DNA of 64,000 nucleotides. Origin: an uncultured Candidatus Saccharibacteria bacterium (GTDB lineage: Bacteria > Patescibacteriota > SICC01). Of the stretch, positions 7,251 to 33,124 are shown one piece after another. Every line of letters starts with the position of its first letter. Within the stretch, counting starts at the first letter, position 1. The stretch is taken from assembly GCA_964476895.1 (NCBI GenBank), contig CAYZCS010000001.1, positions 1,351 to 65,350 on the forward strand. The letters are read 5' to 3'. A model generated the notes under the pieces. That model saw only the letters and a list, made by a program, of their open reading frames with translations. It made no database searches and was not told where the DNA came from. Made by a program: the position numbers and the translations under genes.

Positions 7251-7686
7251 CGCCGTCCTTCCGCCACACCGCGAGGAGCAGCGCCAGCCCGCCGAGCAGG
7301 ATCCAGATGTCCGCCAGGTTGAAGTGCGACGACGGCCCGATCGCGACGATGTCCAGCGCGCCGCCGTAGAGCAGCCGGTCGATGGTGTTCCCCACCGCGC
7401 CGGCCAGGAGCAGCCAGAGCCCCACCCGGACCGACGGCCGCCGAGTGCGTCCCAGCAACACGGCGATGCCGAACATGATCACGAATCCGGCCGCGATCAG
7501 CAAGGTGTTGCTGAGCGGGAGGCCCAGCACACCGGAGCGGTTCACCAGCGCGCCGACGCTCACCGGACCGGCCGAGAAGGTCTCCCCGCTCTGCGAGACG
7601 ATCAGCTTGGTAAGCTGGTCGGCCGCCAGGAGCGCCAGCGCGACCAGTCCGGCCGGTTCCGGACCCCGCCCCACGACGGGCGTCAT
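7243..7686 (-). CDS. lspA: lipoprotein signal peptidase II
   Basis: NRSGVLGLP and GNTIDRLLYGGALD...FNLADIWILLG motifs; ATG at 7684-7686 overlaps the lgt stop (ATGA). Confidence 0.8.
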   Translation of the reverse strand: MTPVVGRGPEPAGLVALALLAADQLTKLIVSQSGETFSAGPVSVGALVNRSGVLGLPLSNTLLIAAGFVIMFGIAVLLGRTRRPSVRVGLWLLLAGAVGNTIDRLLYGGALDIVAIGPSSHFNLADIWILLGGLALLLAVWRKDGGD

Positions 7687-8480
7687 CGTCGCGTCCCTTC
7701 CCGGCGGCCGCGCGGTGGGCGCAGGCCGTAACGGGTCGCCAGGACCCAGAGGCTCACGCCGGACGACGCGAGGAAGACCGGCACCGTCGCACGGAGGTTC
7801 TCGGTCAGGAAGAGGGCGTCCGCCGGATGATGCCACGGTTCCAGAGCCAGCTGTACGGTGGAGACCAGTAGCAGGACCAGCCAGAACAGCATCCCGGCCG
7901 GCGCGTGCGCGGGCCGCAATCGCCAGAGCCGGTACGCATAGAAGGCGATGCCTGCGTACAACCCCGCCGCATAGAGCGCCAACGGATGGAGCCGCTCCCC
8001 GGCGGCCGCGAGCGCCGGCCGCTCCTCATAGGTCACGCCCCAGGGCACGCCGGTCGCCGTCCCGAGGTAGTCACCGTTGAGATAACTGCCGAGCCTTCCT
8101 ATCGCGAGCCCGAGGACCGCCCCGATCGCGACCACGTCGAGCCATCGCCAGAGCGGCCCGCGGTGCCGTCGGATCAGCAGCACGAGCACCAGCGATCCCG
8201 CGAGTAGGCCGCCGGCCAGTGCCAGCCGGCCGCCGCCAATCGCGAACCAGGTCGCCGGTCCCCCGATCTCGTCGGGCCGGAGCATGAGATACCAGATCCG
8301 GGCGCCGACCAGGGCGGCCAGCGTGCCGTACAGGGCATAGTCGGTCAGGTATTTCACCGGCAGCCGCGCCTGCCGGGCCAGCAGGTAGATCACCGCCACC
8401 GCGACCACGACGGCGAGCACCACGAACAGACCGTAACTATAGACGGTCAACGGTCCGAGTTCGAAGAGCATCGGATGCAT
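7683..8480 (-). CDS. lgt: prolipoprotein diacylglyceryl transferase
   Basis: polytopic membrane protein with GRLGSYLNGDYLG (Lgt signature region); first ATG (MHPMLF) used, since the track ORF extends to a TTG at 8525. Confidence 0.75.
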   Translation of the reverse strand: MHPMLFELGPLTVYSYGLFVVLAVVVAVAVIYLLARQARLPVKYLTDYALYGTLAALVGARIWYLMLRPDEIGGPATWFAIGGGRLALAGGLLAGSLVLVLLIRRHRGPLWRWLDVVAIGAVLGLAIGRLGSYLNGDYLGTATGVPWGVTYEERPALAAAGERLHPLALYAAGLYAGIAFYAYRLWRLRPAHAPAGMLFWLVLLLVSTVQLALEPWHHPADALFLTENLRATVPVFLASSGVSLWVLATRYGLRPPRGRREGTRR

Positions 8481-16323: not shown

Positions 16324-17796
16324 TCAGATCCAGCTCTTGAGCCACATCCGCCGGCCGTAGTCCGTAGCGTCGAGCCCGACTCCGGTCCAGACCGGATAGA
16401 AGTAGACGAACGCCAGCAGCGCCAGAGCCAGGAACGCCACGCTCTGTTTCTTTCCCCACCGCCAGCGGGGCACGTTCGTCCCCGCCCACGCCAGTGTCGC
16501 GCCGCCAGCCAGGAGCGTCCCGACCGTGAACCAGGTGACGTCCCCGCCGAACGCCGAGCGGAGGAACAATCCACCGAGCACGCCGTTCGCCGCGATCAGC
16601 CCGAGCCAGACCAGCGACTGCGGCCACGGGTCCTTCGGCCGCCACTGCCAGCTCTGGCCGAGCGCGTATGCCAGCGCCAGGATCACGAACGGCAGCGCCC
16701 CCGCGTAGTGGTAGATGAAGAGTACCCGATCGATCAGCGCCCACGGCGCGTAGTGCGCCAGGATCGCGAAGAGAATGAAGGCCAGGACCAGGCTCCGCCG
16801 CCGGACCAGCTGCACGGCCGCGAAGATCGCGGCCAGCAGCCCGCCCCACCAGACGACAGGGTTCCCCATCGCGATGATGCCCTGCCACTGCCCCTCGACG
16901 ACCTTGAAGTAGTACGCCACCGGACGGATCATCGCCGGCCAGGTGAACCAGTCCGAACCGTACGGATGCGTGGCGTCCAGGTTGTGGTGGTAGTTCCAGA
17001 TCTGCTTGTGGATGCCGGCGGCGTTCTCGCCGGTCGAATCGAACGGCACGTGGATCGCGAAGATCGCCGTGTAGATGATCACCGGCGCGACCACCAGCCA
17101 CGCGACGTAGTGCTCCGCCCGGAAGAGGTTTTCCTTCCGGACACCGAGCGCGGCCAGGAGCCGGTCGCCGGAGCGGACCTTGAAGATCCTCCGAAGTCGA
17201 CGGCGGTCGCGGAACGCGTACACCAGGAGCAAGCCGAACGCCGGCGCGATGAACGCCAACGTGATCCACTTGAGCGAGAGCCCGAGCCCGAACGCCACGC
17301 CCGTCGCGACCAGCCAGCGGTACGCGGCCCGGCGGGTCTTCGCCTGGAGGCTCGCCAGGAACAGGAAGTAGGTCAGGACGTTGAAGAAGACGACGAAGCC
17401 GTCCAGCACGGCCGTCCGCGATTCTACGAGCAGGAAGCCGTCGAGCAGCGCGAGCACGCCGGCGAACGCCGGGACCAGCACGCCACCGAAGATCCGTTTG
17501 GCGAGCAGGTAGAGCAGCGGGACCACCGCCGCGCCGAACAGCGCCGGTGCGAACCGCCAGCCGAAGGAGTCGTTGCCGAAGAGCCACTGCCCGCCGGCGA
17601 TCAGGAACTTACCGAGCGGCGGCTCCGCGTCGAAGAACGGCGTCGCGGTCAGGTAGTTCTGCGCGAAGACCGCGAAGTACGTCTCGTCGAAGATGATCTC
17701 GCCGGGGTGGCCGAGGTTCACGAACCGGAGCAGCAACGCGGCGAGCGTCAGCCCGCCGAGGATCCACCAGTCACGGCGTGTCATGGTCCTCACCAC
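16324..17796 (-). CDS. GT39-family (protein O-mannosyltransferase-like) glycosyltransferase
   Basis: IIFDETYFA DE motif near the N-terminus, multiple TM helices. Confidence 0.7.
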   Translation of the reverse strand: MVRTMTRRDWWILGGLTLAALLLRFVNLGHPGEIIFDETYFAVFAQNYLTATPFFDAEPPLGKFLIAGGQWLFGNDSFGWRFAPALFGAAVVPLLYLLAKRIFGGVLVPAFAGVLALLDGFLLVESRTAVLDGFVVFFNVLTYFLFLASLQAKTRRAAYRWLVATGVAFGLGLSLKWITLAFIAPAFGLLLVYAFRDRRRLRRIFKVRSGDRLLAALGVRKENLFRAEHYVAWLVVAPVIIYTAIFAIHVPFDSTGENAAGIHKQIWNYHHNLDATHPYGSDWFTWPAMIRPVAYYFKVVEGQWQGIIAMGNPVVWWGGLLAAIFAAVQLVRRRSLVLAFILFAILAHYAPWALIDRVLFIYHYAGALPFVILALAYALGQSWQWRPKDPWPQSLVWLGLIAANGVLGGLFLRSAFGGDVTWFTVGTLLAGGATLAWAGTNVPRWRWGKKQSVAFLALALLAFVYFYPVWTGVGLDATDYGRRMWLKSWI

Positions 17797-21154: not shown

Positions 21155-22720
21155 TCACAGCTTCTCCGGCAGCTCGATCCCGACGGTCTCGCCGACCTGT
21201 TCCAGCACCAGCTTGGTAGCCTCGACGAGCCGGAGCCGCGCCGCGGTGAGCTCCTTGTCGTCCGAAACCACGCGGCACTGCTCGTAGAACTTGTGGAACG
21301 CGTCGGCCACGCCGAGCGCGTAGTGCGGCACCCGTTGGATCTGGTAGTCCTCCGCCGTCTGCCGGATGACCTCGGGAAACGCCGAGAGCTCCTGGACCAG
21401 CGCGAACTCCGCGGGCTCGACGAGCTTGCCGAGGTCGGCGTCCTTCTTCTTCGCGCCGCGGCCGGCCTGCCGAAGGATTCCCGCCACCCGCGCGTACGCG
21501 TACTTCAGGTAGTAGACGGGATTCTTCTGGCTCTGCTCCTTCGCCAGGTCGAGGTCGAAGTCCATGTGGGTGTCCCAGCCGCGCATCACGAAGAAAAAGC
21601 GCGCCACGTCGGACGGGATCTCGGCGAGCAGCTCGTCGAGCGCTACGTACGTGCCGGCCCGCTTGCTCATCTTCACTTCCTGGCCGCCGCGGGTCAGCCG
21701 GACGAGCTGCGTGACGAGGACCTGCAGCTTCCCGTCGAAGTGGTCCGCCTGACGGAGGAACTCGACGCCCGCCTCCATCCGCTTGATGTAGCCGTGATGG
21801 TCGGCGCCCCAGATGTCGATCGCCAGGTCGAGCTGCCGTTTCGCCAGTTTGTGGTAGTGGTAGGCGAGGTCGGCCGCGAAGTAGGTCAGCGCGCCATCAG
21901 ACTTCCGGAGCACGCGGTCCTTGTCGTCATCATGGTGAGTGGTCTTGAGCCAGAGCGCGCCGTCCTTCTCGTACGCCGCGTCGATCTTCTCGAAGCCGGC
22001 AAGTACGCGCTCGATCTCGCCGGTCTCGTGCAGCTCCTTCCGCTCCGAGAACCAATCGTCGAACCGGATCCCCATCCGCTCGATCGTCTTCCGGATCTCT
22101 TCCGTCATCAGCGCGGCAGCCTCCGCCCCGACTTCCGCCGCGGTCTTCGCGGTATCCACCTTGGTCTTCAGCTCCGCGACGTACTCGCCCTTGTAGGCGT
22201 CTTCCTCACCCCGGAGCGTGGCGCCGAGCTGTTCCACCTGGAAACCGGCGTCGTTCAGGTAGTACTCACGGCTGACCGTGTGCCCGGCCCGCGTCACCAC
22301 GTTCGCCAGGACATCACCGCCGTAACCGCCGCGGCCGTTACCGAGCGTAAGCGGACCGGTCGGATTCGCGGAGATGAACTCGACCTGGATCTTCCGGCCG
22401 GTCTCCGGGAGCCGCCCGAAGTCCTTGTCCGCTTCCAAGATCTCCGCGACCACGCCCTGCCACGCGGCCGGGCTCAACCGGAAGTTGAGGAACCCCGGAC
22501 CGGCGACCTCGACCGCGTTGAACATCTCCTCGGTCGAGAGCTTTTCCTGGAGCTGCTCGGCCAGGCTGCGCGGGTTCACGCCCCGCTTCTTGCCGAGCAC
22601 CATCGCCACGTTCGAGGCGTAGTCCCCATGCTCGGGCTGCTTCGGGCGCTCGACCGAGAAGTCGGCGTCTTCCGCCTCGGCGAGTTTCGTGAGCAGTGTA
22701 CGTATTTGTTGAGCAAGCAT
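21155..22720 (-). CDS. argS: arginine--tRNA ligase
   Basis: HIGH-region equivalent SANPTGPLTLGNGRGG and a class I ArgS C-terminal anticodon-binding region; start at the MLAQQIRTLL ATG, since the track ORF extends 206 codons upstream through non-coding sequence. Confidence 0.85.
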   Translation of the reverse strand: MLAQQIRTLLTKLAEAEDADFSVERPKQPEHGDYASNVAMVLGKKRGVNPRSLAEQLQEKLSTEEMFNAVEVAGPGFLNFRLSPAAWQGVVAEILEADKDFGRLPETGRKIQVEFISANPTGPLTLGNGRGGYGGDVLANVVTRAGHTVSREYYLNDAGFQVEQLGATLRGEEDAYKGEYVAELKTKVDTAKTAAEVGAEAAALMTEEIRKTIERMGIRFDDWFSERKELHETGEIERVLAGFEKIDAAYEKDGALWLKTTHHDDDKDRVLRKSDGALTYFAADLAYHYHKLAKRQLDLAIDIWGADHHGYIKRMEAGVEFLRQADHFDGKLQVLVTQLVRLTRGGQEVKMSKRAGTYVALDELLAEIPSDVARFFFVMRGWDTHMDFDLDLAKEQSQKNPVYYLKYAYARVAGILRQAGRGAKKKDADLGKLVEPAEFALVQELSAFPEVIRQTAEDYQIQRVPHYALGVADAFHKFYEQCRVVSDDKELTAARLRLVEATKLVLEQVGETVGIELPEKL

Positions 22721-22789
22721 AAGATTGATACCATTATCCGTCGTTCGCAGGTCCAGGTAAAACGTTCGTTCACAATTAAGGGAGGACCC

Positions 22790-22945
22790 ATGAGTTCCAG
22801 GAACAACGGCAGCCACAGCGCTGACGGCTTGGTGTTGGTCGCGCTCCTCGTCATCATCGTATCCGTAGCGTTTGCCGTATCCATGGCCGCGGACAGCGAC
22901 AGCGGCTCGATCCTGCCTCACTACGTCGTCGCCGTGCCAATCTGA
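22790..22945 (+). CDS. micro-ORF 1: single-TM small protein (51 aa)
   Basis: strong SD (AAGGGAGGA) 7 nt upstream of the ATG; hydrophobic core LVLVALLVIIVSVAFAV. Confidence 0.5.
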   Translation: MSSRNNGSHSADGLVLVALLVIIVSVAFAVSMAADSDSGSILPHYVVAVPI

Positions 22946-23002
22946 CCAACGTTCGTTCACAACCGACGGATCACCGGCAACAGCCGGAGAAAGGGATTTC
23001 CC

Positions 23003-23161
23003 ATGGACCGGAAAGACCACGGCAGCTTCACCGGCATGTCGCCGACCGTCGTGATCATCGGCATCGTCTGCTTCGTGATCCTCCTGATCGCCCTCGGCGT
23101 GGGCATCGAGGACCAGTACGGCACGCCACACGACCCGGCGCCTCCGGCGCAGACCCGGTAA
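23003..23161 (+). CDS. micro-ORF 2: single-TM small protein (52 aa)
   Basis: SD-like GGAGAAAGGGA upstream; TVVIIGIVCFVILLIALGVG helix; below the ORF-track cutoff. Confidence 0.5.
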   Translation: MDRKDHGSFTGMSPTVVIIGIVCFVILLIALGVGIEDQYGTPHDPAPPAQTR

Positions 23162-23182
23162 CCGCGCAACCAAGGAGATCCA

Positions 23183-23290
23183 ATGAACGAGAAAAGGGCG
23201 TTCGAAGCGCTCGGCTTTCTGCTCCTCATCGGGGGTGGTGTCATCTGCATCGGCATCGTCCTTCTGACAACCGCCGGTTGCGGTTCCTGA
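23183..23290 (+). CDS. micro-ORF 3: single-TM small protein (35 aa)
   Basis: SD AAGGAGA 6 nt upstream; LGFLLLIGGGVICIGIVLLTTAG helix; immediately followed by the T1 terminator. Confidence 0.45.
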   Translation: MNEKRAFEALGFLLLIGGGVICIGIVLLTTAGCGS

Positions 23291-23308
23291 CATCCCCACA
23301 CCGGCAAA

Positions 23309-23357
23309 CCCCTGACCCACCAACGTCCGCAAGGACATGGGTCAGGGGTTTCTATTT
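23309..23357 (+). terminator. structured intrinsic terminator, copy T1 of a 3-copy repeat
   Basis: outer stem CCCCTGACCCA/TGGGTCAGGGG, inner hairpin GTCC-GCAA-GGAC, then TTTCTATTT. Confidence 0.7.
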
Positions 23358-23387
23358 GCCTATCCGGAATTCAGGCATAATCGAGGC

Positions 23388-23837
23388 ATGAAGGTCATCG
23401 CGAAGAACCGGCGGGCCCGGCACGACTACATCCTCGAACAGACGTACGAGGCGGGCTTGGCGCTGACCGGCGCCGAGGTGAAGTCGATCAAGGCGAGCGA
23501 CATCTCGATCCAGGAAGCATACGTGATCATCCGCGGCGGCGAGGCGTACCTGCTCGGGGCGCACGTGAAGCCGTGGCACGGCGCCGACGGCGAACCCGAC
23601 CCTACCCGGACCCGGAAGCTCCTGCTCCACCGCCGCGAACTGGACAAGCTGGTCGGCGCGACCAAGGAAAAGGGCCGCACCCTCGTGCCGGTCACGGTCG
23701 GGCTCAGCAAAGGTCTGGTCAAGCTCGAGATCGCGCTCGCCCGCGGCAAGAAGATCCACGACAAACGCGAGACGCTCAAGCGCCGCCAGGCCGACCGCGA
23801 GGCCGCCCAAGCGGTCAAGCGTGCCACGAAAAGCTAG
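23388..23837 (+). CDS. smpB: SsrA-binding protein
   Basis: MKVIAKNRRARHDYILEQTYEAGLALTGAEVKS and the conserved SmpB core; SD GAGG 5 nt upstream. Confidence 0.9.
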   Translation: MKVIAKNRRARHDYILEQTYEAGLALTGAEVKSIKASDISIQEAYVIIRGGEAYLLGAHVKPWHGADGEPDPTRTRKLLLHRRELDKLVGATKEKGRTLVPVTVGLSKGLVKLEIALARGKKIHDKRETLKRRQADREAAQAVKRATKS

Positions 23838-23868
23838 TCCATTGACAAACTTCTGAGAATCCGTAGAC

Positions 23869-24339
23869 TTGGATATCGTGAGCCTACGATCCGCATCCCC
23901 CGACTCCGAACCGGGGTCGAGACCCGACCTCGACCTCGAACCTGCCGCCGAGACCGCGGCGGGAGGCGAAGCGTTCCCCGCGGAGCCAGGCATCCCCATC
24001 GAGCCAGCCGGCGAAGACAGCGGTGAATCGAGCCCTGACGCCGACATCGTCGCCCCGGAACCGCTTGGCAAACTGGATCCGGACAGTTTCCGCGGGCGGT
24101 CCGAGACCCGGGCCAGTGCGACGAGCGGCCCGCAGTTGGAGCGCCTACTGGAGACGTTCCCATCAGGAGTCGGGCGCTACTTCCGCGAACGCACGGATGC
24201 CCGGACCGGCAAGAAGGGGCCCGGGCCCCTTCCCCGTGCACCGCTCAGTGGCCGCGGCACAGACGCGATCATGCGGGTCAAGAAAGCCCGGAAATACCTG
24301 GAAGACCGGGCTACGCCACGCGACGAAGCGGATAAATAG
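23869..24339 (+). CDS. hypothetical acidic low-complexity protein
   Basis: ORF with Pro/Glu/Asp-rich composition; coding status uncertain. Confidence 0.3.
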   Translation: MDIVSLRSASPDSEPGSRPDLDLEPAAETAAGGEAFPAEPGIPIEPAGEDSGESSPDADIVAPEPLGKLDPDSFRGRSETRASATSGPQLERLLETFPSGVGRYFRERTDARTGKKGPGPLPRAPLSGRGTDAIMRVKKARKYLEDRATPRDEADK

Positions 24340-24955: not shown

Positions 24956-25145
24956 GGTGTTCCTTGGTTCCGCAAAGTGACGGCGTGCGGGTGACACCCC
25001 TTGATACCGCGCTTTGGAAAAGTCGTCAACCGCTGTGCGGGGCGCGCGGCGGCAAGCTGGAAAATCTCCGGACCGCCCGGGCCGCGGGCCAGGAATCTCT
25101 TTTTTGGGAACATCAGCCTTGCGGCGCAATCCCAAATTCCTTACA

Positions 25146-25463
25146 ATGCAGTCACTTTTTAGCCGTATCGGTAGCTACTTAACAACCAGGGAACAGGCAC
25201 GAAAGGAAATCATCGTGGGAGACGAACGGAGCCCCTCCGAAATAGAAGCAGACAAGAGGAAACAGGAACGATGGTACAGGGAGCACATGAGGGAGGAGCA
25301 AAGAAGAAGAGACAGGGGAGAACCGACCCATCAAGAGATATGGGAACAGAAACAACGCAAAGAGTCCATAAAAGCGTTCGTGCAAGTCGGGAGCGGGGTG
25401 GTGGCAATCTTGATCATCATCGGTTCCATCGTGTGGGCCGGCGTGGAGCTGTTCACCGGTTGA
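25146..25463 (+). CDS. hypothetical protein with a charged N-region and a C-terminal TM helix
   Basis: MQSLFSRIG...VQVGSGVVAILIIIGSIVWAGV; lies in a lower-GC patch and is followed by terminator T2. Confidence 0.5.
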   Translation: MQSLFSRIGSYLTTREQARKEIIVGDERSPSEIEADKRKQERWYREHMREEQRRRDRGEPTHQEIWEQKQRKESIKAFVQVGSGVVAILIIIGSIVWAGVELFTG

Positions 25464-25525
25464 TTGACACTATGCGCGTCACCGCAGAAGTAATCCGCGT
25501 CCGAAGCCCTCGCCGTCAATCAATA

Positions 25526-25579
25526 CCCCCCTGACCCACCAACGGTTCTTACGGACCAAGGGTCAGGGGGTTTCATTTT
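25526..25579 (+). terminator. structured intrinsic terminator, copy T2
   Basis: CCCCCTGACCCACC...inner GGTTC-TTAC-GGACC...GGTCAGGGGG then TTTCATTTTG. Confidence 0.7.
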
Positions 25580-25684
25580 GGCAGATTGTCGTTGTCCGCC
25601 TGCAGACGACGCTGTACAATGGCTGACTCGACAGTCAGGTAGCTTCATTAACAATCCGCAAACCACCAATGGGGAGAGATACAC

Positions 25685-25996
25685 ATGGGCCTTGAGGCCG
25701 GTAACGAGCACCACTACACTGGGGGGCCGGAACAGTGGCAACCCTCACCTTCACCCAGCATTCCCGCGGTGTTCTTCGGAATCATATTCCTGGCGGGTTT
25801 CTTTTTCTTCTTTCTGATGCTCACGTCGGCGCTCCTGATCCATATCCTCGGCGAAATCACGCCGCTGAGCAGCGAAGGCATTCAAGGATCGGTCGGGAGC
25901 ATCATCCTCGTCGTGAACGGGATCCTGGCCGGTATCGGAGCACTGTATATCGGAATAACCTACGCAGCAGAAGAAAGAGGCAAAAGCTCTGCATAA
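25685..25996 (+). CDS. small membrane protein (two predicted TM helices)
   Basis: FFGIIFLAGFFFFFLML and IILVVNGILAGIGALYIGI helices; followed by T3. Confidence 0.5.
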   Translation: MGLEAGNEHHYTGGPEQWQPSPSPSIPAVFFGIIFLAGFFFFFLMLTSALLIHILGEITPLSSEGIQGSVGSIILVVNGILAGIGALYIGITYAAEERGKSSA

Positions 25997-26004
25997 GAAC
26001 ACTT

Positions 26005-26057
26005 CCCCTGACCCACCAACGGTTCTTACGAACCACGGGTCAGGGGGTTCTTTTTGC
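26005..26057 (+). terminator. structured intrinsic terminator, copy T3
   Basis: CCCCTGACCCACCAACGGTTCTTACGAACCACGGGTCAGGGGG then TTCTTTTTG. Confidence 0.7.
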
Positions 26058-26101
26058 AAGGCGAGTCTCGGCCGAACCCGGAATTCAGGCGTAATCGAAC
26101 C

Positions 26102-26185
26102 ATGAACGCCGAGAACCGGCGCGACCGGAAGGACTATCTGCTTGAGCAGACGTTCGAGGCGGGTATCGCGCCGTCGAACGGCCTA
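26102..26185 (+). pseudogene. smpB 5' fragment: diverged duplicate of the smpB upstream region plus the first ~27 codons
   Basis: CCGGAATTCAGGCGTAATCGAACCATGAACGCCGAGAACCGGCGCGACCGGAAGGACTAT... aligns at about 75% nt identity with 23362-23470; encodes MNAENRRDRKDYLLEQTFEAGIA (SmpB: MKVIAKNRRARHDYILEQTYEAGLA) and then runs into the purN 3' end on the opposite strand. Confidence 0.6.
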
Positions 26186-26848
26186 CCCGCGGTGCGGAGT
26201 ACGCGCGCCGGCGACCGTGCAGATCTCGGCGAGGGCGCGGGTCAGCGCCTTGTGCTCCGCCGGCTTGATCCGGGCGTAGAGCTTCTCGACCGTGTCGCCG
26301 TCTTTCACGTCCACCATCGCCCGCTGGAACACCGGCCCCACACCGCCGTCCGGCGTGTGCGCGAAGACGCTCGAACCCGCCCACTTTTGTCCGGCCGCCA
26401 GCACCGCCTGGATCGCGTTCTCGCCAGCCAGGCCCAGGCACGGGTCGGCGAAGTTGCCGTCCGGCAGCTTGAACTTGTGATAGCCCGGGTCGGGGATGAG
26501 TCCCGGATGCACCGAGAGCACCCGCCACGGGAAGTACTTATGGAAGGCTTCGGAGAGGTCGTACGTCCAGCCCGCCAGGACGACCAGGTCCGGGGCATAG
26601 CGCTGGAGCTTGTGGGCCAGGTCCTCCTCGTAGTGCGCGCGGGGCTTCCCGTGCGCGGCGTAGTCCGCGTGGTCCAGCACGACGGTCGGCACGTCCGCCT
26701 CGCGGGCACGCACCAGGCCGTAGGCGCTCTCCTTGTCCGACGCCACCGCCACGACCTGGCCGTCGAACCGCTCGGCCTGGCCGTCCAGCATGGCCTGCAG
26801 GTTGGAGCCGCCGCTTTTGTTCGAGATCAGTACCGCGATGCGTTTCAT
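26183..26848 (-). CDS. purN: phosphoribosylglycinamide formyltransferase
   Basis: MKRIAVLISNKSGGSNLQA N-terminus and the formyl-transferase HPGLIP region. Confidence 0.8.
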   Translation of the reverse strand: MKRIAVLISNKSGGSNLQAMLDGQAERFDGQVVAVASDKESAYGLVRAREADVPTVVLDHADYAAHGKPRAHYEEDLAHKLQRYAPDLVVLAGWTYDLSEAFHKYFPWRVLSVHPGLIPDPGYHKFKLPDGNFADPCLGLAGENAIQAVLAAGQKWAGSSVFAHTPDGGVGPVFQRAMVDVKDGDTVEKLYARIKPAEHKALTRALAEICTVAGARTPHRG

Positions 26849-26960
26849 GTGGTGTGGGTTTTCGGCGGATCCATGCGTGGACCTGCCGTTTGCCGTCATG
26901 ATAGCACGCCTGGGCGTGGCTGGCGGTGCCACGCCGAGCGGTCTCTGCTAGGCTCTAGGC

Positions 26961-29386: not shown

Positions 29387-29820
29387 GGGGATGCACCGGA
29401 TTCGACGGTGGCGTACCTTGACAGGTTGCCGGCCGAGGACGAACGCTCACCTCGCTAATCACGCGTTCAACGGCATTACAACTGCCAACTTCAAAGAGAA
29501 GCTTAGCGGTGTTGTCGCTTCCGCCCGGGAAAGCATTGCTTCCCTGAGCGATGCGTTCGCCCCGCGACAGCTCTCTCCCATCCGGGCGTAATACCCCGGA
29601 TCGTGCCCGCGCGAGCGCCCGGCTCGCACGGTAGCGCGTCATACTCCGGGCTCATCCGGATTCCCTAGTCTCAGGAAATTCGGAGACACGTTTGAGACTG
29701 GGTAGGCTGCGTTTCGTCCGCTTTCGAGCAGCCTGCTGACAGCAAAAAGTGGACTATGCCGGTAGATCGCCTTTCAACGGTCTCCATCGGACGGGGGTTC
29801 GACTCCCCCCATCTCCACCA
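29387..29820 (+). ncRNA. ssrA: tmRNA (transfer-messenger RNA)
   Basis: 5' GGGGATGCACCGGATTCGACGG pairs with 3' ...GGACGGGGGTTCGACTCCCCCCATCTCCACCA (tRNA-like domain, T-arm, CCA encoded); the tag frame is not resolvable with confidence. Confidence 0.8.
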
Positions 29821-30064
29821 AGCGGCTCTCTGAGCTCACCGGCAATACGCTTGCCGTAAGAAAAATAGCTTTGGAAAGAGATTGGATCGAGAATCACTAC
29901 TGCTCGCAAGAAACGCGATACTTAGGAGCAGCTAGAAAGGAGTTGCCAGTACCTATGCCGGTTTCATTGAGCAAGAATGGCGGCGACTCACTGTTGCAAC
30001 ATTAAGAGACTGACAAAAAGGCCCTGGCATAAAGCTCGAAGATATTTTCAAAGTCTTGTAGCAT

Positions 30065-32023
30065 CTACACGCTAGTCACCTGCTCAACCAGATCCTCTGC
30101 TGTGGCTTCTTTCGATATTTTCTTTTTTTGAAATTCAAGTTGTTTTAGCACAAAATCTAACCGCAAATTCACTTCTGTAAAAATTTCACTCCAGGTTTTT
30201 ACGTAAATTTCATAGTTGTCGACACTCTGAATAAGTGATTTCTTGCCATGAACTTTGGCACTTTTTTGCTCTCGTTTTATATAACCCGAGGTGTCAAATT
30301 TGTTCCCCACTAGATAAAACTCCCACTTCATATTTGGAGCATTAAATTCACTCTGCTCAAGAATGACCCCCATGTACTTTTTAACCTGATCCAGCTCTTT
30401 GGCTCCGAGCCTAACCGTAGGCTTTTTGAGTTCCACCACGATGTTATGAATCTCATCATTTTCTTTTAGCTGTCGACAAAGAAATATATCCATTTGCTTA
30501 CGCTTGTCTGGATGGTCAATTTTGACGTTCTTCTTTTCGTCTCGTAAAAGATATAAGTACCGACGAAGAGCCTCTTCAAATACTGGCTCTGCCTCTGTGA
30601 CTAGATGGAATCTTTCCCCAAAAATCCAATAAGACGAAGCTACGATTGTTTGAACATGCGGCACTTCTTTAGCTCTAACATTGTCGTCAAAAACAAGTTT
30701 CTTTAGAGCCTGCAAGTCTTTGTTTCGTCTCTCAAGCATTCGAGTCGTCGCGACCATGCGTGACATATTTGTACTTTGCAGAAGCTCAGCCAATTCCCTG
30801 CGCTCGCTTCTATCAAGATCTACTATTTCCTCAATAATTTTTAGTAGATTTTCCGTTTCATTAGTGTCGATTAAGAGATTCAATAAGCCAACAAAGGTCT
30901 TTTTTTGCTCAATGTTGAGTGTAGAAAAAATTTTAGGCTCGAGCTTGTAGAGGTCCTTAACTAAAACCTGAAGATGCTCTTTTCTAATTTGGTCAAATTC
31001 AGACTCAAGCTCCGGAAAGACCTTTTCGCTCTCATACTCTTTTACTAGATTGTCTGCATTGGTTTTTAGGAAAGGCTTTCTCAACTTTCTCAAATACCCC
31101 GAGAGTTCCTTCTGAAGAAACTTAAACTCAGGACTTGAACGATCAACCCCTATCAAAGTAGATTGATTTTTCTTTTCCTTTCCAAAGCCAAAGTTATCAA
31201 AGAACGAGGATTTGATGTAAACACTGTGATAAAAATCATCACCTTTTCTGTTCAAAGTAGTAAATTCTTTCCACTTTTCTTTATCTTTGGAGTCAATGTA
31301 GTAATACTGCGACCACTCCTTATTTAGACTTTCCTTCCATCGAACGTATGAGATATGAAACTTTGTATTGCTCTCTTCGTGAGTGAACTCTGTTTCCTTT
31401 CTGTCTCCAATCAATGCTGTGTAATCCAGCTCTTCTCCATTAATAAGAATCTTGAACGCTTTACTTTTATTTAGCTCTAAAAACCATCCAAACTCTCTTA
31501 CGAGGAAAGGTTGTAACTCTTGCTCGATCTGCGTTCTCGTAAAATCAAATATTGACGAAAGTATTACTTCTGTCCCTGGTTTTTCAGTAGTGATTTTTGG
31601 AGTCGTCGGATTAAAGAGATCGAGTCGTTTTGAATCAGCCTTAATCCGATACTTATGCCTCTTGCCAGCCTTCTTGTACACCGTTTCCCATGAAGCTTCA
31701 TTAGCAAACTTAAAGAAAGTTAGTCTGCCTACACCAGTTCGTCCGTGCAGTTGAGATTGATTGAAAGTTTTTTCGGCAAATTTCTCGGAATCATGAAATC
31801 TCCGAAATTTTTCTTCGAGCTTTGAGTGATCAATTCCATATCCATTGTCACGAATAGTGATAGAAGAAAGGTTGCCTATCGCATTACTATCAAATTCCAG
31901 TTCGACTTTGGTTGCATTGGCATCAAAGCCATTCCAAATGTACTCAGCAAGGGATCGATTTCTATCATAATTATCAAGAACCTGCTTGATACCCACCGAG
32001 GTAATTCGAACGCTTTTGCTCAT
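30065..32023 (-). CDS. GHKL-family ATPase (MORC/HATPase_c_3-like N-domain) with a C-terminal PD-(D/E)xK-like nuclease module
   Basis: Bergerat-fold boxes: N-box EYIWNGFDA, G1 IRDNGYGI, G2 HGRTGVGRL; C-terminal MDIFL...IVVELKKP (D...ExK pattern); 652 aa; 38% GC. Confidence 0.65.
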   Translation of the reverse strand: MSKSVRITSVGIKQVLDNYDRNRSLAEYIWNGFDANATKVELEFDSNAIGNLSSITIRDNGYGIDHSKLEEKFRRFHDSEKFAEKTFNQSQLHGRTGVGRLTFFKFANEASWETVYKKAGKRHKYRIKADSKRLDLFNPTTPKITTEKPGTEVILSSIFDFTRTQIEQELQPFLVREFGWFLELNKSKAFKILINGEELDYTALIGDRKETEFTHEESNTKFHISYVRWKESLNKEWSQYYYIDSKDKEKWKEFTTLNRKGDDFYHSVYIKSSFFDNFGFGKEKKNQSTLIGVDRSSPEFKFLQKELSGYLRKLRKPFLKTNADNLVKEYESEKVFPELESEFDQIRKEHLQVLVKDLYKLEPKIFSTLNIEQKKTFVGLLNLLIDTNETENLLKIIEEIVDLDRSERRELAELLQSTNMSRMVATTRMLERRNKDLQALKKLVFDDNVRAKEVPHVQTIVASSYWIFGERFHLVTEAEPVFEEALRRYLYLLRDEKKNVKIDHPDKRKQMDIFLCRQLKENDEIHNIVVELKKPTVRLGAKELDQVKKYMGVILEQSEFNAPNMKWEFYLVGNKFDTSGYIKREQKSAKVHGKKSLIQSVDNYEIYVKTWSEIFTEVNLRLDFVLKQLEFQKKKISKEATAEDLVEQVTSV

Positions 32024-32060
32024 ACGAGTATCTTACCAGTCAGACTTTTGCGATTTTCTT

Positions 32061-33080
32061 TCATGATTCAAATTTCCCAATCTCGGCATACCAATCAATT
32101 GTATCTACCAAATCTAGATCGCACGGCACAGGATTATCCTCGATAAATTTAGCCTCAAAATACTGGTTCCAGTAAGCTTCGGCTGATCGCCGAGGATGGT
32201 TTGCAAGCCACGAATCAAAGTAGTCGAAGTGAACGTCGTAGTGGTGTGTATGCATGAAGTCGTCCCACGTACCTTGCAACTGGTCAGCATCAGCACCTGG
32301 TCGGGCAATAATCTCGAACTGCTCAAATTCACGTTTTTCTTTTGAGCCCCAGCCCTTTTTTAGCTGCTCCATCGCTGCTACATCCGAATCTGGCGCGCGA
32401 TAACCAAAAACCGTTACCCATGCCGCGGATTTTAGTGCTTCCGTTAGACGCAGCCACTCGCTGGCGATAAACGGATTTTCCTCATAATTCTTCTCGTTGA
32501 CCGGATACAACAAGGGCACAGGACTGAAAGTTTTCTTGCAAACACTACAATTATTCCCAACTGTTCCGGCAATCCGATCTTTCTCGCATATCCCAACCAT
32601 GACATTGCCATGAAGAAACGCTAGCGGCGGCCGCGACAAAGTCCTCCGGCCACTTCTTGCGTAAGCTTGCATTAAAAGCGGATCCCAATTGAAGCTGGCA
32701 ATTAAGTCCTTATCTCGAAGTGACAAAATAAGGTGATCGTAGATTGTCGGATCATCTGGAATCTGGAAGCGCTCGTAATATTCATGAATGGCTTCATCTA
32801 TCTTGTCTGCAATCTCCGCTTTCGACCGATCCAACCGTAGATCTGAATAGGCAGACTCAAAATCCTCAACGTCGCCTAAGCCAGCCTCTTCCAGCAGAGG
32901 AGCAACAGTTTCTATTTTCGATAGACCTTTCATGTCAGTCGGTCGCTTCCCGTTCCTGTCTCCATTAGGCAGAGCAGCAATACTTGCGCCGGCGCCGAGA
33001 ATTACAACATGTGGCTTACCGGCAAAAGGCTTTTCAACCTCTTGCTCTTTAGTAACTTCAGAACCAGATGACGCTGCCAT
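32061..33080 (-). CDS. SIR2-like (sirtuin/DHS-like NAD-binding fold) protein
   Basis: VVILGAGASIA (GAGxS), FNWDPLL (TTNYD-like), LAFLHGN (catalytic HG), Cys-x12-Cys-x2-Cys, VTVFGYRAPDSD; 37 bp upstream of the GHKL gene on the same strand. Confidence 0.65.
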   Translation of the reverse strand: MAASSGSEVTKEQEVEKPFAGKPHVVILGAGASIAALPNGDRNGKRPTDMKGLSKIETVAPLLEEAGLGDVEDFESAYSDLRLDRSKAEIADKIDEAIHEYYERFQIPDDPTIYDHLILSLRDKDLIASFNWDPLLMQAYARSGRRTLSRPPLAFLHGNVMVGICEKDRIAGTVGNNCSVCKKTFSPVPLLYPVNEKNYEENPFIASEWLRLTEALKSAAWVTVFGYRAPDSDVAAMEQLKKGWGSKEKREFEQFEIIARPGADADQLQGTWDDFMHTHHYDVHFDYFDSWLANHPRRSAEAYWNQYFEAKFIEDNPVPCDLDLVDTIDWYAEIGKFES

Positions 33081-33124
33081 GCGCTAATCATAACTTTACC
33101 CGCGTCTGATTGCCGACTGCCGGT

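Follow-up and report, generated by a model that had tools for sequence, protein, structure and literature searches.

The small membrane proteins AcrZ, MgrB, MgtS, KdpF and CydX, which modulate larger complexes, are what we take to be the nearest described kind to three very small open reading frames (micro-ORFs, here ORF1, ORF2 and ORF3) lying between argS and smpB of an uncultured Candidatus Saccharibacteria bacterium. The DNA analysed, hereafter called the window, is a stretch of 64,000 nucleotides (nt) of contig CAYZCS010000001.1 (GenBank assembly GCA_964476895.1) from a genome with about 65% GC, and scans were made within this window unless stated otherwise. To our knowledge, small membrane proteins have received little study, and none in Patescibacteria; a literature search for type I toxins or small proteins of Saccharibacteria and Patescibacteria brought up nothing relevant. 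Patescibacteria have tiny genomes, which make each retained gene informative, and depend on surface contact with host bacteria. The products of the micro-ORFs are new orphans within a known class, that of the bacterial small membrane proteins, and the locus offers a clean case of three orphan peptides with computational coding support in a poorly studied phylum.

Like AcrZ, MgrB, MgtS, KdpF and CydX, the predicted peptides have fewer than 60 amino acids (aa), a single helix, short polar ends and translation led by a Shine-Dalgarno (SD) sequence, and ORF2 and ORF3 display moderate purifying selection. In contrast to them, the micro-ORFs are without sequence relationship, do not lie beside a membrane complex and vary between strains rather than being found throughout a genus or family. 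With type I toxins such as Hok, Ldr, Ibs, TisB, Fst and TxpA/BsrG they share size, a hydrophobic helix, the arrangement in tandem sets and a patchy distribution; unlike these, they lack an antisense promoter, a fold that hides the SD and a match to a toxin family, and several genes would be carried on one messenger RNA (mRNA). ORF3 also invites comparison with lipoprotein signal peptides and with the enterococcal sex pheromones derived from them. It has the charged head, the hydrophobic core and a motif of two small residues followed by Cys, which is kept in a relative (L002, see below), yet no mature protein follows (only 2-3 residues after the Cys), and the core is of transmembrane length.

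Features of the three micro-ORFs

The sequence-only reading of this DNA had reported three SD-led ORFs of 51, 52 and 35 aa between argS and smpB, each encoding one hydrophobic helix and together followed by a shared terminator. These elements were confirmed, with the ORF coordinates set by exact string search (Table 1); the helix strings that had been quoted are present, and the Kyte-Doolittle maxima over 19 residues reached 3.05 for ORF1, 3.22 for ORF2 and 2.76 for ORF3. The SD of ORF1 is AAGGGAGG (GGGAGG), spaced 4 nt from the ATG, followed by AAGGGA at 6 nt for ORF2 and AAGGAG at 5 nt for ORF3. A comparable SD 5-mer at -16 to -4 is found in only 4.4% of the window's 1361 ATGs. When both strands of the 64 kb were considered, four ORFs of 25-75 aa combined a strong SD with a helix; three are ORF1 to ORF3, grouped within 500 nt, and the fourth match is an internal start inside the larger ORF S4 (Table 1).

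Table 1. Positions of the micro-ORFs and of associated features in the window
Feature	Position	Strand	Description
Leader	22721-22789	+	Overlaps argS promoter; presumed home of the micro-ORF promoter and 5' untranslated region
Repeat copy 1	22761-22775	+	AACGTTCGTTCACAA; in leader
ORF1	22790-22945	+	51 aa; one transmembrane helix, LVLVALLVIIVSVAFAVSM
Repeat copy 2	22948-22962	+	AACGTTCGTTCACAA; before ORF2
ORF2	23003-23161	+	52 aa; one transmembrane helix, polar head, Pro-rich acidic tail YGTPHDPxPPxQTR
ORF3	23183-23290	+	35 aa; one Gly-rich helix, ALGFLLLIGGGVIC; lipobox-like end TAGC-GS
T1, intrinsic terminator	23303-23360	+	-34.8 kcal/mol, z -5.6, then UUUCUAUUU
argS (arginine-tRNA ligase)	21155-22720	-	521-aa ORF; left flank, transcribed away from the micro-ORFs
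smpB	23388-23837	+	Right flank; Pfam SmpB, E 6e-52
Second cassette	25034-26192	+	1.16-kb insertion relative to L001 (synteny break); repeats D1-D3, D5, D7
S4	25146-25463	+	Charged protein with C-terminal helix; precedes T2
T2 hairpin	25527-25579	+	Shares 17-mer with T1
S5	25685-25996	+	103 aa, several hydrophobic stretches, SD GGGGAGAG; precedes T3
T3 hairpin	26005-26056	+	Shares 17-mer with T1
Diverged copy of smpB promoter and first ~26 codons	26078-26171	+	77-90% identical; right end of insertion

All three micro-ORFs show the coding-type GC pattern of this genome's genes. GC at codon positions 1/2/3 amounts to 0.57/0.43/0.84 in ORF1, 0.63/0.44/0.94 in ORF2 and 0.57/0.46/0.74 in ORF3, to be compared with 0.70/0.38/0.90 in argS and 0.68/0.43/0.91 in smpB. 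On account of this composition, of the purifying selection on ORF2 and ORF3 and of the frame, start and stop kept in relatives (see below), it is very probable that the micro-ORFs are genuine genes and encode tiny membrane peptides. In our estimation translation is highly likely for ORF2 and ORF3, and for ORF1 it is probable. That such ORFs would be missed by annotation turned out to be true of ORF1 alone: the exact sequences of ORF2 and ORF3 already exist in public data as unnamed gene calls, in a public protein collection (78,989-bp NCBI contig), and ORF1 was not called.

A further peculiarity of the micro-ORFs lies in their mode of initiation. In smpB, argS and most called genes of the clade (window 23372-23390 and 22720-22740; relatives L106, L109 and L111-L115), a TAnnnT box stands just 6-12 nt 5' of the ATG and no SD is present. 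smpB has a CATAAT box of its own 7 nt upstream of its ATG, and a TAnAAT box directly 5' of this start codon is conserved in relatives with and without micro-ORFs in the spacer. Only 3 of 33 called genes of the relatives carry a strong SD 5-mer. This suggests that leaderless mRNAs are the rule in the clade, and that the SD-led micro-ORFs therefore stand out.

T1 can be regarded as an intrinsic terminator because its long, stable hairpin is followed by UUUCUAUUU; a simple terminator scan missed it due to the long loop. The hairpin begins 13 nt after the stop codon of ORF3, and the U-tract abuts the smpB promoter. Without a terminator between the three ORFs, and with the strong hairpin and U-tract of T1 only after the last of them, the micro-ORFs would form one unit. 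T1 has an exact 17-mer, CCCCTGACCCACCAACG, in common with the hairpins T2 and T3 located further downstream, and this 17-mer occurs nowhere else in the window. A dispersed element of the repetitive extragenic palindromic type was considered for T1-T3 and rejected, there being just three copies in 64 kb, all in this neighbourhood. The terminators of L001 and L002 at this locus differ from T1.

Conservation and selection

A protein search with argS led to Saccharibacteria and Patescibacteria genomes with identities of 92% (L001, whose protein is named arginine--tRNA ligase by NCBI), 76% (L002) and 66-69% (L003-L006). Additional relatives (L106-L115) were obtained from an smpB search and contig look-ups, L106 being identical to L001. 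The divergent argS-smpB pair is kept across L001-L006. Conservation of the reading frames in related genomes had been proposed as a check on the micro-ORFs, and it did not refute ORF2 and ORF3. The spacer of L001/L106 holds a single 52-aa ORF that is 73% identical to ORF2, ungapped, with the same start and stop and an SD of its own; this L001-type ORF2 was also called by the Logan gene caller. In L002, tblastn detected an ORF3 homologue with 54% identity over 35 aa (E 2e-8), or 61% in a MAFFT alignment; it differs by one frame-preserving indel of two codons and conserves the motif ALGFLxLIGGGxIC and the terminal GCGS. L002 possesses in addition a 52-aa helix ORF unrelated to the ORFs of the window.

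Pairwise ratios of non-synonymous to synonymous substitution rates (dN/dS, omega) were calculated according to Nei-Gojobori. ORF2, compared between the window and L001, yielded a dN/dS of 0.35, with 16 synonymous and 20 non-synonymous differences over 52 codons and a dS of 0.56; for the same pair, argS and smpB revealed dS values of 0.44 and 0.48 and omegas of 0.10 and 0.125. ORF3, compared between the window and L002, yielded a dN/dS of 0.28 at a dS of 0.93, next to dS values of 0.77 and 0.57 and omegas of 0.21 and 0.11 for argS and smpB. Synonymous changes exceeded what neutrality predicts, with p values of 0.012 for ORF2, 0.014 for ORF3 and 5.5e-4 when pooled. Since dS resembles that of the flanking genes, descent of ORF2 and ORF3 looks vertical, and, judged by these rates, both behave as coding sequences under moderate constraint. 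The differences within ORF2 are unevenly spread, with 3 of 16 residues changed in the head, 3 of 17 in the tail and 8 of 19 in the helix.

Beyond these close relatives, the micro-ORFs found no counterpart in the collections searched. ORF2 retrieved itself only from 5.8 billion proteins, and the same was true of ORF3 in an exhaustive phmmer search of 1.84 billion representatives. Exact look-ups of ORF2, smpB and argS in a contig index gave no match, and in a metagenome scan with smpB as anchor all matches were from distant bacteria, at no more than 54% identity. None of the ORFs matched GenBank phages in tblastn, nor did alignments of ORF3 and ORF2 match anything in IMG/VR. Family matches above noise were absent from Pfam, NCBIfam, PADLOC and PHROGs. 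ORF2 matched Pfam DUF6479 with 13.8 bits (E 0.081) and the NCBIfam AmaP membrane anchor with 12.1 bits (E 0.13), far short of the respective cut-offs of 25.4 and 55; both matches cover the helix and adjacent residues and are most simply explained by helix composition.

Gain and loss between argS and smpB

Across the relatives, the spacer between the start codons of argS and smpB differs greatly in size and content. It measures only about 25-60 nt in L004, L109, L111, L112, L114 and L115, and the spacers of L003 (238 nt) and L006 (133 nt) contain no such ORFs. L001 carries ORF2 only, and L002 an ORF3-like ORF together with the unrelated 52-aa helix ORF. The comparison of L002 with L109 is particularly clear: along 3.9 kb and 4.2 kb of flanking sequence the two share 98% identity, but L002 (reverse complement 7574-8171) contains a cassette of about 600 bp with two helix ORFs and a terminator where L109 (3953-3986) has about 35 nt. 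The L002 cassette sits exactly between the argS start and the -10 box of smpB. The two strains represent a natural presence/absence pair, which would allow correlation with host or habitat.

In the leader region, positions 22660-22775 are 95.7% identical to L001 and 74% to L002, and the leader is absent from L109, which has no cassette. Two exact copies of AACGTTCGTTCACAA, 187 nt apart, flank ORF1 (Table 1), and none of 100 shuffles contained two copies. L001 has a single copy, directly 5' of its ORF2. The 187-nt unit with ORF1, bounded by the two copies, is gained relative to L001; ORF3 with a different terminator is a second gain of the window. ORF1 was examined as a possible paralogue of ORF2 and rejected as such, the alignment z of 2.2-4.3 against shuffles being inflated by the hydrophobic block and only the 15-nt leader repeat linking the two.

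ORF3-type genes are present in the window and in L002 and absent from their respective sisters L001 and L109, which implies at least two losses or a transfer between lineages. The micro-ORFs are thus most likely accessory genes restricted to this lineage, a high-GC clade of Saccharibacteria, where the interval between two housekeeping promoters would be a hot spot of insertion and deletion. The practical value of this finding is modest: an expectation of toxins is corrected, and the hot spot can be surveyed across Saccharibacteria genomes.

Possible function of the peptides

With some reserve, we favour the reading that the locus is a three-gene operon of orphan accessory single-helix membrane peptides in an insertion/deletion hot spot, the accessory role of the peptides included. 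One mRNA would run from the conserved leader, shared with the divergent argS promoter, to T1, and its three cistrons would each be initiated independently from their own SD. The products would insert into the membrane as single-pass peptides. By the positive-inside rule, the N-terminal heads (R4; R3, K4; K4, R5) are predicted to lie inside and the acidic or Pro-rich tails outside. The peptides would then most likely attach to larger proteins of the envelope and modulate them, or display a short tail at the surface. Anatomy, coding signature, purifying selection, the patchy distribution among strains and the lack of hallmarks of known families or of toxin-antitoxin systems are shown by the sequences, while we infer transcription as one unit, topology, translation in vivo and the part of a modulator. 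An accessory role of this kind, by binding in the envelope or by display of a tail, is favoured because the soluble ends of ORF2 and the intramembrane motif of ORF3 are conserved and there is no sign of a repressed toxin; non-specific membrane damage is less likely. The term membrane micro-regulator, one of several that the sequence-only reading had offered, would be the best generic reading.

Several observations weigh against this interpretation. A consensus scan revealed no promoter above threshold on the plus strand for the micro-ORFs; by eye, TTGAGC-17-CATTAT can be made out in the leader as a candidate. The omega of ORF2 is about three times that of the flanking genes in the L001 pair, and that of ORF3 is 1.3 times that of argS and 2.5 times that of smpB in the L002 pair, so that constraint is only moderate. 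Conservation comes down to one pairwise comparison per ORF with small counts. ORF1 remains unconfirmed by relatives, as no homologue turned up in them, in the protein search or among GenBank phages, and its SD, helix and GC3 pattern therefore have to carry its case. A partner protein was not found; the neighbours ArgS and SmpB are cytoplasmic translation factors, and hence the usual clue to small membrane regulators, co-location with a complex, is missing. Finally, a patchy distribution at strain level would equally suit toxin, immunity or exclusion functions.

Among these, a type I toxin had been suggested, and it seems unlikely to us that one or more of the peptides is such a toxin or another membrane-damaging peptide restrained by an antisense or trans-acting RNA. 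Size, the single helix and the polar tail would fit, and presence or absence at strain level would suit selfish or addiction modules. The toxin loci ldr, ibs and hok occur in tandem, as do the micro-ORFs. Against a toxin, the only minus-strand promoter-like site that the consensus scan detected between 22000 and 27000 is that of argS (TTTACC-17-GATAAT, 22761-22733), although an atypical promoter could escape such a scan; no Rfam family was found in the region. The SD is typically masked in type I toxin mRNAs, but the initiation regions of ORF1 to ORF3 are no more structured than shuffles (z +0.53, -0.92 and +0.87). Three unrelated peptides in one SD-led operon do not resemble single-gene loci, no toxin family was matched in Pfam, NCBIfam or PADLOC, and the tails of ORF2 are better conserved than its helix. 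The other suggestion, of bacteriocin-like or immunity peptides, belongs to a group of explanations in which the products are secreted or used in signalling, ORF3 possibly being a stand-alone signal peptide of the lipoprotein type whose processing releases a tiny lipopeptide or a hydrophobic, pheromone-like fragment; we regard this as improbable. The charged head, hydrophobic core and C-terminal TAGC-GS of ORF3 (VGGC-GSA in L002) speak for it, as do an internal GGG and the strain variability, which would suit genes of competition or communication. The lipobox pattern PROSITE PS51257 may be matched by TTAG-C33 in the window and by AVGG-C31 in L002. Against this stand the hydrophobic stretch of about 24 residues, which has the length of a transmembrane helix and not that of a signal peptide, and the lack of a family match. 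The GGG is located inside the continuous hydrophobic helix and is not a double-glycine leader as a bacteriocin would have; after the Cys only GS (window) or GSA (L002) follows, and no mature domain. The 21 neighbouring products scanned (11.8-38.8 kb), which include a helicase-nuclease, an M50B-like peptidase, a protein O-mannosyltransferase (PMT), PurN, a decarboxylase, a methyltransferase and hydrolases, comprised no ATP-binding cassette (ABC)/C39 exporter, modification enzyme, two-component system or other bacteriocin gene; a phage protein and the lipoprotein-processing enzymes Lgt and LspA were not among the scanned products either.

It is similarly improbable that some or all of the ORFs are non-functional, be it as chance ORFs or as decaying remnants, with ORF1 perhaps a recent untranslated by-product of local duplication. 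ORF1 has no relative, was not called as a gene and lies between two copies of the 15-nt repeat, and the relatives lose these ORFs freely; on the other hand, all three possess gene-like GC1/2/3 values and an SD, and ORF2 and ORF3 are under purifying selection. The start codons at 22790, 23003 and 23183 share one frame (coordinate mod 3 = 2), with 19 and 7 in-frame codons between the ORFs, which might point to the break-up of a larger gene. The shared frame has a chance probability of 1/9, and we judge it to be a coincidence. A single broken three-helix gene was rejected, since L001 has ORF2 without the others, at unchanged ends, and the frames of the two L002 ORFs differ from each other. Least probable of all, and hardly to be expected, is a role as regulatory leader or arrest peptides controlling read-through of T1 into smpB or the expression of the next ORF. 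The short distance from the ORF3 stop to the hairpin might be taken in its favour, and the N-terminal helix and Pro-rich end of ORF2 (DPAPPAQTR) loosely recall peptides that monitor membrane insertion, such as MifM or the RAPP class (PMC12992588). ORF2 contains no R-A-P-P, however, and the residue before PP varies (DPTPPSQTR in L001). Only about 12 residues separate helix and PP, so that the helix would not yet have left the ribosome tunnel, and the downstream genes are ORF3 and smpB, not sec or yidC. In L001, about 70 nt lie between the ORF2 stop and a different terminator. Attenuation control of smpB was dismissed as unlikely, since the TAnAAT box right before its ATG persists regardless of the cassette. 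A bolder variant of the accessory-peptide reading would make the argS-smpB spacer a dedicated landing pad, in which recombination swaps cassettes of tiny surface-exposed membrane peptides with a common terminator hairpin and the peptides determine, strain by strain, host attachment, host range or exclusion. Such a role is conceivable because these bacteria live attached to host bacteria, but as a whole we consider the variant a long shot; in its boldest form, ORF3 may encode only a lipoprotein-type signal peptide, processed to a signalling or lipid-anchored tripeptide.

Second cassette and further observations

A second cassette lies downstream of smpB and has a GC content of 0.55, compared with about 0.65 around it. 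Here the sequence-only reading had noted two further helix-bearing small ORFs preceding hairpins, which was borne out by S4 and S5, located upstream of T2 and T3, respectively (Table 1). A diverged copy of the smpB promoter and first codons forms its right end, and the simplest reading is that a segment once located upstream of smpB in another strain was copied to this place. If true, other strains would hold other small membrane proteins in the same spacer. Where the 3' end of purN (26183-26932, minus strand) is reached, the smpB copy breaks off abruptly.

The best promoter-like site of the region (TTGACA-16-TAGACT, 10/12) was located at 23842-23869, just downstream of smpB, and ends exactly at the TTG start of an ORF of 156 aa (23869-24339). 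A homologue was called in L108 and Pfam gave no match for this ORF, which is another candidate leaderless gene.

Two other regions of the window deserve mention. The PMT/PMT_4TMC homologue mentioned above is encoded at 16327-17796 on the minus strand, beside the M50B-like peptidase, revealing envelope glycosylation genes in a reduced genome. At 30000-33100, adjoining the 3' end of the transfer-messenger RNA (tmRNA) gene (29387-29820), GC falls to 38-47%. This region encodes a 652-aa protein with HATPase_c_3 and a weak match to the type I restriction domain HSDR_N_2, followed by proteins without a Pfam match, and looks like a foreign, possibly defence-related island inserted at the tmRNA gene.

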